Below are positions 12,963 to 16,055 of a stretch of 47,353 nucleotides of DNA, in pieces; position 1 is the stretch's first letter, and each line of letters starts with the position of its first letter. This stretch comes from Promethearchaeota archaeon. Its GTDB lineage: Archaea > Asgardarchaeota > Lokiarchaeia > Sigyniarchaeales > SOKP01. The translations under genes were made by a program, and so were the position numbers. Where the stretch lies: assembly GCA_016839585.1 (NCBI GenBank), contig JAEOTZ010000025.1, positions 1-47,353 of the forward strand, given 5' to 3'. Below the pieces are notes generated by a model that saw nothing but the letters and a program-made list of their open reading frames with translations, was not told the DNA's origin and ran no database searches.

Positions 12963-13583
12963 ATGCCGATTATAACTCATGAAGATGAACTTGAGTTAGC
13001 TAAAATGGAAAAAGAATTAGTTGGGCAAATAAAGAAATTAATTAATGCCCAGAGTGTCTTAATTAGTTCTCAAACAAAATATGCTGAAAACATTACAAAA
13101 GCCAATATAACTCGAGAAATGCTTAATCGAACTTTTAGAGACGTTTTAAAGCAAATGCAAACTTTAGCCAGAGAGCACAGATCTAATATTAAAGATGAGG
13201 AAGTACATCTATATCAGGAAATTATTACTCAAAATGACAAATACATTGAGGGTAATAAAAGATATTTAAACGCAATAAAAGATTTAGCTGTACAAAAAGA
13301 CTATTTAGTAGAAAAGAAAAAGGAATTTGCTGATGCTTTATCTGATGTAGCCAATAAAAGATCAACTGTGATAAAAAAGGCATTAAACGTCGAAAAAGTT
13401 AAAAATAAATTAGTTGATGGTGATAAATTAAATATCCTCGATCAAGAATTAAATGACGTTCAACGTGATTTTGATAGGGCTCGTGACATACTAATTAAAA
13501 AAATCCATCAATTTAAAGAGATTAAAAAAGAGATTAATACATTATGGATTAAGTTAAAAGATACTGTTACTGAATTAAGTTAG
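12963..13583 (+). CDS. All-helical ~200-aa protein, BAR-domain-like
   Basis: Three long amphipathic helices; KRSTVIKKALNVEKVKNK-LVDGDKLNILDQELNDVQRDFDRARDIL..IHQF resembles the SNX-BAR helix2-tip-helix3 pattern. Confidence 0.55.
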   Translation: MPIITHEDELELAKMEKELVGQIKKLINAQSVLISSQTKYAENITKANITREMLNRTFRDVLKQMQTLAREHRSNIKDEEVHLYQEIITQNDKYIEGNKRYLNAIKDLAVQKDYLVEKKKEFADALSDVANKRSTVIKKALNVEKVKNKLVDGDKLNILDQELNDVQRDFDRARDILIKKIHQFKEIKKEINTLWIKLKDTVTELS

Positions 13584-13682: not shown

Positions 13683-14117
13683 ATGGCAGAAGAATTCGCA
13701 AATTTTCTCTCAGAAACCCGAAAAGCACCATTAGAAGAAAAACTTAATGCTTTTGGTGATATTGTTGAAAAAATTATGCAAATAATTCTTAAAATTCCAG
13801 ATTTAGTTGATCAAAGTATCCAAAATATCAATTCAAAAGTTTCAAGTTTACAAACTCAAGTAAATGCTATTAATAGCAGTCTTGGTGGTGGCAAAGGTGC
13901 AGGAGCAGCAGTATCTCCTGCTATTACATCAACAGCAGCTTCTCCCAGTCCCAGAACCCCATCTGGAGGCCCCCCACCTCCCCCTGGAGGTCCGCCTGGA
14001 GGTCCGCCTGGAGGTCCGCCTGGAGGAGGACGTCCTGCCAGTCCCATGTCATTAAGAGGAGCAATTATGGGAGAATTAAAAGAGCTATTTGCACGACGGA
14101 AAACTCGAAGTGAGTGA
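13683..14117 (+). CDS. Coiled-coil + polyproline + C-terminal amphipathic/basic motif protein (candidate actin regulator)
   Basis: N-terminal heptads; GGPPPPP(GGPP)3; C-terminal SLRGAIMGELKELFARRK. Confidence 0.7.
   Translation: MAEEFANFLSETRKAPLEEKLNAFGDIVEKIMQIILKIPDLVDQSIQNINSKVSSLQTQVNAINSSLGGGKGAGAAVSPAITSTAASPSPRTPSGGPPPPPGGPPGGPPGGPPGGGRPASPMSLRGAIMGELKELFARRKTRSE
13983..14024 (+). repeat. 12-bp tandem repeat CCTGGAGGTCCG x3.5, encoding PGGP
   Basis: Three exact copies plus CCTGGA; GC-rich patch in AT-rich DNA. Confidence 0.95.
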
Positions 14118-14300
14118 AATATTTTAGTTAGAAACACTAATATCTGTTTATTTTTTAGTTATAAATAAACAATGTTCCTTACTTTTTTTTATAAGTTTAC
14201 TATATTCTTAAAAATTTAAAATTTAAGATTATACCATGAATTTCAAATAAAAATAAAAATTTTAAAAATTTTACATAAGTACTAATGTGAATTTAAATGG

Positions 14301-16055
14301 TTGAAACTATTGCTCCCTTCTGAAGAAAAACCAAGGATTGAAATTACAGTCAATGTAGCACACGATCTACAAAGACAATTACTTGAGATTCCATCTTTTT
14401 TAAGAGTTATGAATAATTATTATCAAAAGAAAACAAATCTTCAGAGACAAATAAAATCACTATTCTTAAAAAGATTTAAGGAAGGATGTCTGGAAGACAA
14501 TAAAGATTGGCTCCATACAATTCCTACTGCTTTAAATGCCTTGAGTGATGACTTTTTAAGTAAAAAAGATTCCTTTAAATTCCCAGATAATATAATACTT
14601 TTTGAAGCATGGATGCATTTAGGTATAGAGGCTCTTTATCCTCGTGTTGTTTTACATTTTAAATTTCCTGGTTTTTTAAAAGGAGAAAAAGTTAGAAATG
14701 TTTTTCAATTCATATTTTCCACTTCTCGTGGATTTGGCTTTCCAATTTATTTTGGTCCTGAATTCTATGAATATAAACTTAAATTCACAAAGATTATTGA
14801 ACCTATTTTAAAATGGGGTTATACTGTATGTCACAGAGCAAATCAGGCAATCATTATTGGAAATAAACGTCTTAAATCGAAAAGACATCACCCCGGAGAA
14901 TTTGAATTAGTAATCATTTCCGAATACGATAATAATAAATTCAAAGCAATAGATACACTTCTCCATGGTTATTTTACAAATGCTCCTAGAAATTTGGGAA
15001 AATATTTTTCTTTGGATAATGTTCTCCAGAATACTACTTTCTCTTATTCCATAGGAGATCATGCAATGAGAGTGAAAAAAAAATTAATGGAAAAAACTTT
15101 ACCAATTCCATTACTTTCTCATGATTTTATCGTTTATAAGTATGATATAGATTTCTCTACCTATATTAAAAAATTAAAGGTAGTTAATGAATTATTAATT
15201 AAAAAAATTGGTGCTTTTAAAGAGAAGAGAAGCAATCTCATAAATAACTTGAAAAAGAGTGATAAGATAAAATTTAGACTTGAACAATCAAAACGTTTTG
15301 CAAAAGAATTTGCTCAAATGAAGCAAAAACTTTCAGAAAAATATCCAATAATAGATAAGTATGGGCATTATAAAACGTTATTAGGAAAAATTAAAGATTT
15401 ATTATTTACTACACCTCTTTATATGCATACTATCCATTCCACTGACGAAAAAGAACAACTATTCAAATTTCTAATAAGTAAAAAAGAGGATATTGAAGAA
15501 ACAGAAAAAAATTCGGCAAAATCCATCTTTTTATCATTTATTAAAGATTATGAAAAAAAACATGATTTTTTATTTGAAGAAGATGAAGTTTTAGAAGGAT
15601 TAGAAGATTTAAAAGATAATATGGCAAAAATATGGTTAATTTTTAAAGAAAGGCATCTCAATCTAGCGTTAAAAAGATTAAATGAAATGTCAACATTATC
15701 GATAGAAGATCCAGATTATAAGAAAAAAATTAATGATTATTTGGATAAACTTCTACCAATACTTTCTATTTATGAGATTTTTAATAGACCGTTATCTGAA
15801 TCCGTCTACCCTGAATCTATATCCCAAACTAAAAGATTAGGAGCCTATATTGCGCAATTTTTAACATCAAAATATAATCCAATAGGTATAAACCTCATGA
15901 AACTGTTTAATCGATTATCCTTTCAAAATTGGAGTTATTTAGTATTAAAAAAGAAATTAAACCGAAAGCAGTTTTTTAATTATCTCTTAAAACTACCAAT
16001 TTGGAAACATATTCCAATTAAAATTAAGATGAAAATTTTAAATTATGAGACTTAA
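14301..16055 (+). CDS. Hypothetical protein, 584 aa
   Basis: Long ORF, alpha/beta N-half and helical C-half, no recognised motif. Confidence 0.8.
   Translation: MKLLLPSEEKPRIEITVNVAHDLQRQLLEIPSFLRVMNNYYQKKTNLQRQIKSLFLKRFKEGCLEDNKDWLHTIPTALNALSDDFLSKKDSFKFPDNIILFEAWMHLGIEALYPRVVLHFKFPGFLKGEKVRNVFQFIFSTSRGFGFPIYFGPEFYEYKLKFTKIIEPILKWGYTVCHRANQAIIIGNKRLKSKRHHPGEFELVIISEYDNNKFKAIDTLLHGYFTNAPRNLGKYFSLDNVLQNTTFSYSIGDHAMRVKKKLMEKTLPIPLLSHDFIVYKYDIDFSTYIKKLKVVNELLIKKIGAFKEKRSNLINNLKKSDKIKFRLEQSKRFAKEFAQMKQKLSEKYPIIDKYGHYKTLLGKIKDLLFTTPLYMHTIHSTDEKEQLFKFLISKKEDIEETEKNSAKSIFLSFIKDYEKKHDFLFEEDEVLEGLEDLKDNMAKIWLIFKERHLNLALKRLNEMSTLSIEDPDYKKKINDYLDKLLPILSIYEIFNRPLSESVYPESISQTKRLGAYIAQFLTSKYNPIGINLMKLFNRLSFQNWSYLVLKKKLNRKQFFNYLLKLPIWKHIPIKIKMKILNYET

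Follow-up and report, generated by a model that had tools for sequence, protein, structure and literature searches.

A small coiled-coil protein of Asgard archaea, with a conserved C-terminal helix shared with Arf/Rag-like GTPases, as a possible actin tether

The stretch of DNA analysed here (the window; 47,353 nucleotides, contig JAEOTZ010000025.1 of the Promethearchaeota assembly GCA_016839585.1) encodes a small protein that is real, strongly conserved and previously undescribed in Asgard archaea. The whole module of which it consists, a coiled coil followed by an arm and an end helix, is also the C-terminal tail of Arf/Rag-like GTPases, which is new here. The end helix may be a docking element and its partner may be actin. 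By analogy with known systems, we favour, at a probability of roughly 0.35, an oligomeric tether whose end helix would dock on Lokiactin in the way that arcadin-2 docks on crenactin. Asgard archaea have a dynamic actin cytoskeleton, yet the literature up to late 2025 names only profilins and gelsolins as its regulators. In this respect the preliminary description of the locus, which regarded such a protein class as not well established in archaea, agrees with the published record; its interpretation as a whole is partly supported.

Architecture of the gene and its product

The open reading frame starts with ATG and encodes 144 residues. The protein runs from a heptad segment (LVDQSIQNINSKVSSLQTQVNAINSS) through GGPPPPPGGPPGGPPGGPPGGG to RPASPMSLRGAIMGELKELFARRKTRSE, and the translation, the alignments and the AF2 model all agree with the layout first described, namely a coiled coil, GPPPPP(GGPP)3 and a terminal helix. 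The features of the locus are as follows.

12963..13583, + strand: co-oriented upstream gene, 206 residues, BAR-like (arfaptin-like) three-helix protein (synteny, AF2, Foldseek, VIA)
13683..14117, + strand, stop included: gene of the protein with coiled coil, Pro-rich arm and putative docking helix, 144 residues (ORF, homologs, AF2 model)
13686..13721, + strand: short N-terminal helix, residues 2–13, AEEFANFLSETR (helix 2–13 in the AF2 model; near-invariant among Loki-type members)
13731..13898, + strand: long helix, residues 17–72, with the head LEEKLNAFGDIVEKIM and then the heptad coiled coil (AF2 pLDDT >90)
13899..14030, + strand: disordered Gly/Ala/Ser/Thr/Pro arm, residues 73–116, including GPPPPP(GGPP)3 (pLDDT <50; variable alignment columns)
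13979..14026, + strand: 12-bp tandem DNA repeat in four copies, TCCGCCTGGAGG, coding for the GGPP repeats (TRF)
14031..14114, + strand: conserved C-terminal peptide, residues 117–144, with the lead-in RPASPMS, the helix LRGAIMGELKELF and the basic cluster ARRKTR (alignments; AF2 helix 124–143)
13856..14137, − strand: antisense reading frame of 93 residues across the Pro/Gly tract (ORF list)

The last of these was rejected as a gene. It reads the poly-Gly/Pro tract in reverse, whereas the conserved positions are those of the + strand frame, and it is an artefact of the GC-rich repeat; the GC content of the tract is 63–71%, against about 27% for the genome.

In the AF2 model, residues 2–13, 17–72 (pLDDT >90) and 124–143 (pLDDT 75–85) are helical, and residues 74–119 are disordered. 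The heptad register of the long helix has V/L/I at the a positions and I/L/F at the d positions, with a stutter near residues 42–46. This helix (residues 17–72) is a probable oligomerisation stalk, and the oligomer would most likely be a trimer. The arm, whose native Pro/Gly peptide reads GPPPPPGGPPGGPP, differs in length and composition among lineages (alignments A1 and A2). Downstream of it lies the C-terminal helix, LRGAIMGELKELFARRK, and the protein ends in ARRKTRSE, in which an acidic-Trp motif is absent.

Distribution of the family and its fusion to GTPases

More than 182 homologs were found, with E-values down to 1e-68, and an exhaustive profile search returned 885 proteins at E ≤ 0.001. 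The full-length profile matches 159 of 301 Asgard genomes; a 30-position profile of the tail matches 224 of them and scores 53.8 bits in the source genome. The family occurs in the Loki, Hel, Thor, Odin and Heimdall-labelled groups, that is, in most Asgard lineages. Overall identity between lineages is just 21–33%, and the tail is the best-conserved part: Glu131 and Leu132 are invariant and Lys133 is nearly so in the alignments of all lineages, and the conservation of the terminal motif that the preliminary description had made decisive for its reading is thus borne out. In alignment A1 the invariant residues of this region are Arg117, Pro118, Pro121, Leu124 to Ile128, Glu131 to Lys133, Leu135 and Phe136, together with Ala2, Glu3, Glu4, Phe5 and Phe8 at the N-terminus. 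The stand-alone members share a conserved helix and coiled coil, a variable P/A/S/T arm, the C-terminal motif and a length of 120–210 residues, the motif being R-x-x-h-h-x-E-L-K-x-L-F-x-K/R (alignments A1, A2 and A3; profile searches). What follows the helix is variable: the Lokiarchaeum forms have poly-Asp ends, poly-Asp or acidic tails occur also in Thor and Heimdall-labelled forms, and the Heimdall-labelled forms end in KGWDE(D/E), with a Trp and acidic residues.

Outside the family, little resemblance was detected. The nearest ESM Atlas clusters are exclusively uncharacterised Promethearchaeota and Thor clusters. The members are unannotated, and no Pfam family covers the full protein, which gave sub-threshold coiled-coil matches only, and Foldseek found no match for the AF2 model of the 144-residue protein. 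The full-length profile retrieved generic trimeric coiled coils only from the PDB (best 60 of 477 matches), and no evident eukaryotic relative appears among the 150 rows listed from the exhaustive profile search, whose library carries no names.

The source genome encodes three GTPase paralogs that bear the module. The G domains of the module-bearing GTPases match Gtr1_RagA and Arf above threshold, and in these proteins neither an N-terminal amphipathic helix nor a lipidation site is evident. In some GTPases the motif is internal, or about 45 more residues follow it. All fusions found join the module to a small GTPase, Arf/Rag-like or Ras-like, and none of them carries an actin-binding domain; no fusion to gelsolin or profilin was seen among the motif carriers examined in families f1 (the window's own) and f2, and the module is absent from the GelX-type proteins of the source genome. 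Thor 1DGelX was not picked up by the Pfam gelsolin model. A word-indexed search for longer fused forms, with the full protein and with the tail alone, returned none, which is weak evidence, the search being affected by crowding and by the database's size. Motif-bearing GTPases turned up in f1, in f4 and, weakly, in f2 only, whereas the mini-protein occurs in L. ossiferum and the distant lineages as well. In L. ossiferum it corresponds to a sense ORF of 152 residues at 2,628,799–2,629,257 (+ strand), immediately after NEF87_002200; this exact protein is absent from the sequence collection searched, which does include its Elf1 neighbour.

An Arf GTPase of L. ossiferum (GNAMCCOK_04696 / UYP48373.1) co-precipitated with Lokiactin (bioRxiv 10.1101/2025.11.30.690169). 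Calibration of gene number against position placed UYP48373.1 at 5.39–5.46 Mb of that genome, and the five GTPases inspected at the predicted position lack the motif, so that no link between this Arf and the module emerged.

The gene of the mini-protein lies among Pelota, radical-SAM, BAR-like and Elf1 genes, and neither at the source locus nor at the relatives' loci examined is it adjacent to an actin, profilin or gelsolin gene. The AF2 model of the BAR-like neighbour (pLDDT 84.6, pTM 0.65) has BAR domains in its top Foldseek rows and arfaptin at Z 13.8 in VIA, and on this modelling evidence the neighbour is predicted to fold like an arfaptin-type BAR domain. It adjoins the mini-protein gene only in f1. 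The source genome encodes Lokiactin, at 15970–17082 of contig C10, and three other actin-fold paralogs as well as gelsolin-domain proteins, and Lokiactin is present at about 440 bits in four families without the module (f7, f16, f22 and f11). Families f19 and f29 are likewise negative for the module.

Candidate partners of the tail

In our reading, the window's gene is the stand-alone version of a pan-Asgard "tail module". Its conserved helical head and coiled coil would oligomerise the protein, and the disordered, rapidly evolving Pro-rich arm would act as a flexible spacer. The C-terminal peptide, P-x-S-P-x-S-x-R-x-x-h-h-x-E-L-K-x-L-F-x-K/R-R/K, would form an amphipathic helix and dock on a protein partner that is itself highly conserved. 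The likeliest partner would be Lokiactin, contacted in a hydrophobic groove or on the side of the filament, as modelled on arcadin-2 with crenactin and on the F-actin-binding segment (FAB) of VASP with F-actin. The several helices of an oligomer could then tether, bundle or locally concentrate actin, the module on Arf/Rag-like GTPases could couple the actin contact to the GTP switch, and the BAR-like neighbour could couple it to membranes in the f1 lineage. A protein-docking peptide is suggested by the tail being the best-conserved part and by its invariant acidic residue and Pro-containing lead-in, both typical of such peptides.

The preliminary description had likened the tail to the VASP FAB, and the sequence it gave for this segment agrees with human VASP residues 259–278 (PMC10340426). 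The likeness holds at the level of a motif. Against the family tail profile, the published FAB of human VASP reaches 10.2 bits, a score that none of 2000 shuffles equals; the hydrophobic spacing i, i+1, i+4, i+7, i+8 is common to both, and Thor-type tails (GGLMGELKSLLAARRKK) have 10 of 17 residues in common with the FAB. However, five unrelated ORFs in 2.66 million background residues, scored in windows of 20 residues, reach the same score (about p = 10^-3 per protein), which implies some 20–40 chance matches in a human-sized proteome. The similarity is not significant proteome-wide, and the VASP comparison is only suggestive. The VASP GAB peptide scores 1.2 bits, which is at noise level (219 of 2000 shuffles do as well). 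A relation to WH2 did not emerge: Pfam WH2 (PF02205) matches neither the 22 C-terminal segments searched (hmmscan, E ≤ 10) nor the full protein, and the tail profile gave three PDB matches at E ≤ 10, none of them significant, one being a WH2 repeat helix of Cordon-bleu (E 7.4).

In weighing the actin tether, we counted for it the conservation of the tail, the arcadin-2-like architecture, the FAB score, the Cordon-bleu match, the genes for Lokiactin, its paralogs and gelsolin-domain proteins in the genome, the poly-Asp or Trp-acidic ends of some forms, the internal position of the motif in some GTPases and the restriction of the literature to profilin and gelsolin as Asgard actin regulators. 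Counted against it were the lack of significant actin-binding homology, the chance hits at the FAB score, the lack of linkage to actin genes, the presence of Lokiactin in module-free families, the fusions to GTPases only, the GelX-type proteins without the module, the motif-free GTPases at the predicted position of the co-precipitating Arf, and the compatibility of the helix with peripheral membrane binding.

Somewhat less likely is a reading in which the helix of the tail docks on some conserved partner that is not actin. The module would then be a common address tag by which a family of Arf/Rag-like GTPases and the stand-alone protein are gathered on a single platform. Such a platform could be a GTPase regulator or scaffold, the BAR-like protein, ESCRT or FtsZ/tubulin, and the homologous coiled coil might allow the stand-alone form to assemble together with the GTPase tails. 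The pattern of conservation indicates a protein partner, and the genomic context is without any tie to actin. Homology between the mini-protein and the C-termini of the Arf/Gtr1_RagA-like GTPases, among them the three paralogs of the source genome, covers the whole module beyond the helix, and the module occupies the position of the roadblock dimerisation domain of Rag GTPases; the neighbour, moreover, resembles arfaptin, a protein that binds Arf, Arl and Rac. However, no candidate for such a partner was found. The adjacency of the BAR-like gene is confined to f1, and the restriction of motif-bearing GTPases to f1, f4 and weakly f2 contrasts with the mini-protein that L. ossiferum and the distant lineages keep. 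As for ESCRT, the tail departs, as judged by eye, from the MIM1 consensus (D/E)xxLxxRLxxL(K/R).

Could the tail instead bind lipid? It would then be a membrane anchor for the oligomer and for the fused GTPases on the acidic archaeal membrane, like the ends of MinD and FtsA or the polybasic tails of GTPases, and the arm would be only a spacer. The position of a helix after a disordered linker and before a basic cluster accords with this, and the helix is compatible with peripheral membrane binding, with a median muH of 0.42 and a HeliQuest-type discriminant D of about 1.0, in the zone of "possible" lipid binding (D of 0.68–1.34; members span −0.28 to 1.83). The fused GTPases, without an evident N-terminal membrane helix or lipidation site of their own, and the BAR-like neighbour, which suggests a membrane setting, point the same way, and Asgard Arfs do use amphipathic helices for membrane binding (PMC11914678). 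On the other hand, a lipid-binding helix needs neither the invariant Glu and Lys nor the conserved Pro/Ser lead-in. The mean hydrophobicity is low (0.22), D falls below 0.68 in several members, and the motif is internal in some GTPases. Poly-Asp or acidic tails directly after the helix in the Lokiarchaeum, Thor and Heimdall-labelled forms also disfavour an anchor, since the poly-Asp ends of Lokiarchaeum and the Trp-acidic ends of the Heimdall-labelled forms would be repelled by acidic membranes. A membrane anchor is unlikely.

Returning to actin, a stronger version of the tether appears improbable. In that case all Asgard groups would share an actin-binding helix of ancient origin, akin or even ancestral to the FAB, WH2 and central helices of eukaryotic actin regulators, and it would be carried on a multivalent tether and on Arf/Rag-like GTPases. 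If true, this would give Asgard archaea a GTPase-coupled, BAR-linked machinery for actin assembly or tethering at membranes, beyond profilin and gelsolin.

The least probable reading, a special case of the actin tether, is an Ena/VASP- or WASP-like profilin-actin loader, in which profilin-actin would be recruited by GPPPPP and the end helix would either pass monomers on to the filament or hold it, thereby speeding elongation or nucleation. Of 120 Loki-type members, 99 have runs of at least five Pro, as do L. ossiferum and Odin LCB_4; the Heimdall-labelled forms have long PPxP-rich arms, and, as in VASP, the helix comes immediately after the Pro tract. The profilins of Thor and Heimdall LC3 bind VASP polyproline weakly, and Asgard profilins have no known native Pro-rich ligand. 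Yet in vitro the profilins of Loki and Odin, two lineages whose members have the runs, showed no binding to VASP polyproline, and Thor profilin binds it although Thor members lack the runs (PMC8410842 for the profilins). GPPPPP turned out not to be a family feature: in the Thor, Hel, f10 and f21 members no run exceeds one to three Pro, so that profilin recruitment cannot be the ancestral function of the family. The protein also has no GAB/WH2 element and no EVH1 domain, and most lineages have no acidic-Trp Arp2/3 motif. The Pfam profilin model detected no profilin in the source genome, its one weak match being an unrelated helical ORF of 426 residues; Asgard profilins are too divergent for this model, and their presence is therefore taken from the literature.

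The question is directly testable, because the family is small, easily expressed, present in most Asgard classes and ends in a peptide of 20 residues that can be synthesised. Because the module is a tail of Arf/Rag-like GTPases and adjoins an arfaptin-like BAR protein in the f1 lineage, the partner of the tail is probably under GTPase control, which would represent an early form of the coupling of GTPases, membranes and cytoskeleton that is typical of eukaryotes. If the partner is not actin, the family would still represent an undescribed docking tag in wide use among the archaea most closely related to eukaryotes.

Comparison with known systems

Paralogs of the module are C-terminal tails on G domains of the Arf/Gtr1_RagA type, which relates the family to Rag/Gtr1 and Arf GTPases. 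Different from these, the window's gene has no G domain; Rag GTPases have a roadblock domain at the C-terminal place, and Arfs have an N-terminal amphipathic helix. A tail of coiled coil, arm and helix is not described in the papers on Asgard Arfs consulted (among them PMC11914678).

Human VASP consists of a proline-rich region, GAB (residues 223–239), FAB (259–278) and a tetramerising coiled coil (343–380) (PMC10340426). The Asgard protein resembles Ena/VASP in having a Pro-rich tract immediately ahead of an amphipathic helix with a basic cluster at its end, in the hydrophobic spacing h-M-x-E-h-x-x-h-h-A-+-R-+ and in the multivalency that the coiled coil is predicted to give. In contrast, its N-terminus is a helix and coiled coil without a Pfam match to EVH1, it has no GAB/WH2 element or second motif, and its Pro runs are not conserved across the family. 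Its coiled coil is N-terminal, heptad-based and trimer-like, whereas that of VASP is a C-terminal right-handed tetramer; no membership in EVH2 was detected.

With WH2 and the WASP/WAVE/WASH proteins, the family shares a short amphipathic helix of h-h-x-x-h spacing with an Arg before it, as in RGALLxxI. WAVE and WASH, too, have a coiled-coil helix at the N-terminus and a Pro-rich region after it, and the Trp-acidic ends of the Heimdall-labelled forms and the poly-Asp ends of the Lokiarchaeum forms add to the likeness. However, the LKKT/V motif of WH2 is absent, the Asgard helix being followed by LFxKRK, and most Asgard lineages lack the acidic-Trp motif that binds Arp2/3.

The best Pfam matches of the coiled coil, both sub-threshold, are NPV_P10 (E 5e-4; 20.5 bits against a curated cut-off of 38) and Baculo_PEP_C (E 5e-3; 17.6 against 29.8 bits). 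Baculovirus P10 likewise combines a coiled coil with a Pro-rich stretch and a basic C-terminal end; the match to P10 and to the polyhedron envelope protein is limited to generic heptads.

MinD and FtsA carry membrane-targeting C-terminal amphipathic helices, and FtsZ has a linker and a C-terminal peptide. The Asgard protein has no homology to any of them; it shares their plan, in which a variable, disordered linker joins a core that folds or polymerises to a short and conserved helix at the terminus, and the charged end varies. Its helix is moderately amphipathic and basic, as in MinD and FtsA, while the invariant Glu and Lys and the conserved lead-in are closer to the FtsZ peptide and argue for a protein rather than a lipid as partner.

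The system on which the actin tether is modelled is arcadin-2 of Pyrobaculum calidifontis, whose last 17 residues bind the hydrophobic groove of crenactin (PMC5173319, PDB 5LY3). No sequence similarity between the two proteins was detected, 5LY3 being absent from the three tail-profile matches and from the best 60 of 477 full-length matches, and they resemble each other in architecture alone. Arcadin-2, which comes from a crenarchaeon, acts in sequestration and depolymerisation and is encoded in the arcade cluster beside crenactin, whereas the Asgard gene is unlinked to actin and actin binding by its product is only predicted. Both are archaeal proteins in which an unstructured linker without conservation leads from a folded or oligomeric core to a small, conserved helix at the C-terminus.

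Architecture and distribution of the mini-protein

The gene lies in a 3.45-Mb genome of about 27% GC (estimated completeness 99%). The layout given in the preliminary description is borne out in its reading frame, with heptads LVDQSIQNINSKVSSLQTQVNAINSS, a Gly/Ala/Ser/Thr/Pro stretch containing GGPPPPPGGPPGGPPGGPPGGG, and the end RPASPMSLRGAIMGELKELFARRKTRSE.

Reading frames at the gene in the window
13683-14117, + strand: intact 144-aa ORF (ORF reading)
13856-14137, - strand: spurious 93-aa ORF, antisense through the tract, a by-product of the Pro/Gly repeat
13864-14055, + strand: spurious ORF in another frame, from the GC-rich Pro/Gly repeat

In the AF2 model, built on a 26-sequence alignment, a short N-terminal helix (residues 2-13) precedes a long helix (residues 17-72, pLDDT above 90), a disordered arm (residues 74-119, pLDDT below 50) and a terminal helix (residues 124-143, pLDDT 75-85). 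The heptads carry V/L/I at a positions and I/L/F at d positions, and the PDB sequence matches of the full-length profile are trimeric coiled coils only (among the best 60 of 477 matches); the mini-protein would therefore be an oligomer, probably a trimer, as judged from sequence. The GGPP repeats are encoded by a 12-bp tandem repeat in four copies, which forms a GC island of 63-71%. Such a GC-rich repeat in an AT-biased genome argues that selection maintains the Pro/Gly codons, and its tandem nature makes the arm length changeable by slippage. In AT-rich genomes, GC-rich Pro/Gly repeats can also mislead gene callers.

A word-indexed search returned over 182 homologs, 135-190 aa long and every one labelled "hypothetical", and in an exhaustive profile search 885 proteins passed E <= 0.001. 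Neither Pfam nor the published literature searched contains the family. In a phylum sample of 301 genomes, 159 are matched by the full-length profile and 224 by a tail-only profile of 30 positions, whose hits are always ORFs of about 135-210 aa. Exact look-ups placed members in Odinarchaeum yellowstonii LCB_4 (WEU40005.1) and in Thor-, Hel- and Heimdallarchaeota-labelled MAGs; another occurs in the closed genome of Ca. Lokiarchaeum ossiferum B-35 (6,035,313 bp). Five genome families of the sample (f7, f16, f19, f22 and f29) are essentially negative with the tail profile; Lokiactin, the Asgard actin, is present at about 400-446 bits in representatives of f7, f16, f22 and f11. One 491-aa protein from the exhaustive search, P0272, retains the N-terminal head and coiled coil, but in place of the arm and tail helix it has an unrelated domain, about 330 aa long and without a Pfam match; it resembles a natural domain swap and might hint at function.

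In the alignment, Loki-type members share a near-invariant N-terminal head, AEEFxxFLxxTRKAPLEEKLNAFGDIVEKIM, and a near-invariant tail, RPASPxSLRGAIMGELKxLFxKR. Across all lineages compared, the overall identity falls to 21-33%, with the architecture kept and the tail still recognisable. In all lineages aligned, E131 and L132 never vary and K133 hardly does, which bears out the conservation of the terminal motif among orthologs; P-x-[SN]-P-x-[SN]-x-R stands upstream of this E-L-K and L-F-x-[KR] downstream, followed by a basic cluster. Arm lengths lie between about 30 and about 120 residues. The arms of Heimdall-labelled long forms (loci L061-L063, family f24) are PPxP-rich and about 120 aa long; these forms terminate in …ELKEAF[AS]RIRKGWDE(D/E), an acidic-flanked Trp straight after the helix, and Lokiarchaeum forms (L058, L074) end in runs of 6-11 Asp.

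Gene neighbourhood and GTPases carrying the same module

Neighbours of the gene in the window
12963-13583, + strand: 206-aa BAR-like (arfaptin-like) upstream neighbour (predicted structure)
14301-16055, + strand: 584-aa ORF without a Pfam family, downstream

In the window's own family, f1, the gene order Pelota, radical-SAM, 206-aa helical gene, mini-protein gene, sometimes a gene of about 570 aa, and Elf1 is kept. The 584-aa ORF also lies downstream in the relatives L001 and L002 and is missing from L004. The adjacency to Elf1 persists in f2 genomes, that of L. ossiferum included; the Odin and Thor genes are flanked by unrelated ones (VTT-domain and CobW-like genes, or those for sugar enzymes), so that outside the order the context is a poor guide to function. 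The 206-aa neighbour, which adjoins the gene in f1 only, is predicted to form three long antiparallel helices (pLDDT 84.6, pTM 0.65). Its structural matches are BAR domains nearly throughout, with arfaptin and arfaptin-2/ARL1 on top (Z 13.7-13.8); the best, arfaptin, gives Z 13.8 and rmsd 4.2 Å over 186 residues, a Z that long helical bundles reach easily. This predicted arfaptin-like fold is new.

When the tail profile was scored against all six-frame ORFs of the window's genome (G000; C, contig), the best non-self matches were three Arf/Rag-like GTPases of about 414-490 aa.

Module-bearing Arf/Gtr1_RagA-like GTPases, within loci L075-L077
G000:C26:48535-49827, + strand
G000:C87:25553-27046, - strand
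G000:C78:9954-11231, - strand

Their C-termini consist of a homologous helix and coiled coil, a Pro/Ser arm and the motif, ending …VLDELKELLEKRNKK, …IISELKEMFKKR and …VLDELKDLFAKKKR. The exhaustive search independently gave, among the matches listed, 426-464-aa proteins with the entire module at the C-terminus, one of them ending …SLRGAIMGELKELFAKKKSI. The G domains of module-bearing GTPases match Gtr1_RagA and Arf above threshold, and all secondary motif occurrences inspected in f1 are Arf/Rag-like GTPases; among the motif carriers examined in f1 and f2, no fusion to gelsolin or profilin turned up. The three G000 proteins also have a helical N-terminal domain of about 110 aa, without a Pfam match. 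In a Ras/Rab-like GTPase (L055:1395-2741, + strand; G099:C3) the motif ATPVSLRGAIMSELKQIL is internal and is followed by about 215 aa of helical sequence of no known family. In Rag GTPases, a roadblock domain occupies the position where the module sits in these Asgard proteins. The GTPase-tail context, with three paralogs in one genome, is new; no C-terminal tail of this type is described in the published Asgard Arf work found.

Lokiactin and other candidate partners of the tail

We tentatively propose, at a probability of roughly 0.35, that the mini-protein is a multivalent tether and that its end helix docks on Lokiactin, which would fit as a phylum-wide conserved partner of the tail.

Actin-fold proteins in G000
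C10:15970-17082: Lokiactin, 443 bits
C37:91058-92146, C60:49643-50590 and C47:41869-42975: three divergent actin-fold paralogs (291, 215 and 162 bits), possible Arp-like proteins

Profilin, gelsolins and "an Arf GTPase" were enriched in a Lokiactin co-immunoprecipitate from L. ossiferum (bioRxiv 10.1101/2025.11.30.690169). Prokka gene numbers were calibrated to genome position with actin and two 2DGel genes as anchors. The five GTPases inspected near the predicted site of the co-precipitated Arf are without the motif, so this check, also new, gives no link from that Arf to the module. The mini-protein ortholog in this organism lies directly downstream of Elf1 (NEF87_002200 = UYP45915.1).

Ortholog in L. 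ossiferum
L074:1300-1758 = G303:C1:2628799-2629257, + strand: 152 aa, with three Pro runs and a poly-Asp end

Its exact sequence is missing from a 15-billion-protein collection in which that of the Elf1 neighbour is present, and a 97-aa antisense ORF runs through its Pro tract. It may have been mis-called in the deposited annotation, which, if true, would conceal it from published proteomics. Thor 1DGelX has a coiled-coil "domain X" suspected by its authors of side-binding actin (PMC7444086); a search with the Pfam gelsolin model did not locate 1DGelX in Thor genomes. The module is absent from both GelX-type proteins of G000, whose tails are Lys/Pro-rich in one and a SAP-like helix-turn-helix motif in the other.

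GelX-type proteins in G000
C3:18276-19238, + strand: gelsolin domain and shared beta-rich extension
C86:38327-39382, - strand: gelsolin domain and shared beta-rich extension

Nearly as probable is docking of the same kind on a different partner, such as a platform that the Arf/Rag-like GTPases share. That the tail is a membrane-targeting helix is unlikely: its amphipathic values (muH 0.42, D ~1.0) would suit such a role, but a protein partner is favoured over lipid because the tail is extremely conserved, including an acidic residue and the Pro/Ser lead-in, because acidic ends follow it in several lineages, and because the motif is internal in some GTPases.

Published work found no binding of VASP polyproline by Loki and Odin profilins and weak binding by Heimdall LC3 and Thor profilins (PMC8410842). 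The family shows the opposite pattern: 99 of 120 Loki-type members, L. ossiferum and Odin have Pro runs of at least five, whereas the runs in Thor, Hel, f10 and f21 members are only 1-3 Pro long. In view of this newly noted mismatch, profilin recruitment cannot be the core function of the family, although the published data are for VASP polyproline rather than the native GPPPPPGGPP. The full profilin-actin loader put forward in the preliminary description, a sub-case of the Lokiactin tether, is accordingly improbable.

Comparison with known actin-binding systems

The likeness to VASP claimed earlier stands in part. The human F-actin-binding segment (FAB), given correctly there (PMC10340426), scores 10.2 bits against the family tail profile, a value reached by none of 2000 shuffles; the G-actin-binding segment of VASP scores at noise level. 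Since HMMER scores vary with target length, the background was redone on 20-aa windows, a length-fair statistic new for this likeness. At 10.2 bits or above, 2.66 M residues yield nine ORFs: four true module carriers (16-40 bits) and five chance internal helices. The resulting chance rate is about 2x10^-6 per residue, which for a single 380-aa protein means p ~10^-3. As a targeted comparison the FAB likeness is suggestive, and it is far below proteome-wide significance. None of the 22 tails examined matches Pfam WH2, and a PDB search with the tail profile gave three matches, none significant, one being the Cordon-bleu WH2 helix (E 7.4). On these results, the mini-protein is not assigned to the WH2, Ena/VASP or WASP families.

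The VASP relation thus remains one of functional analogy, the FAB region and the mini-protein being alike in their hydrophobic spacing, basic terminus, Pro-rich lead-in and multivalency. The acidic Heimdall-labelled and Lokiarchaeum termini may recall the acidic end of WASP-family proteins. The strongest precedent for the proposed tail mechanism is archaeal: the conserved C-terminal helix of arcadin-2, 17 residues long and set apart from the core by an unstructured, non-conserved linker, binds the hydrophobic groove of crenactin (PMC5173319). The proposed working principle of the family, a tethered docking helix, is already known.
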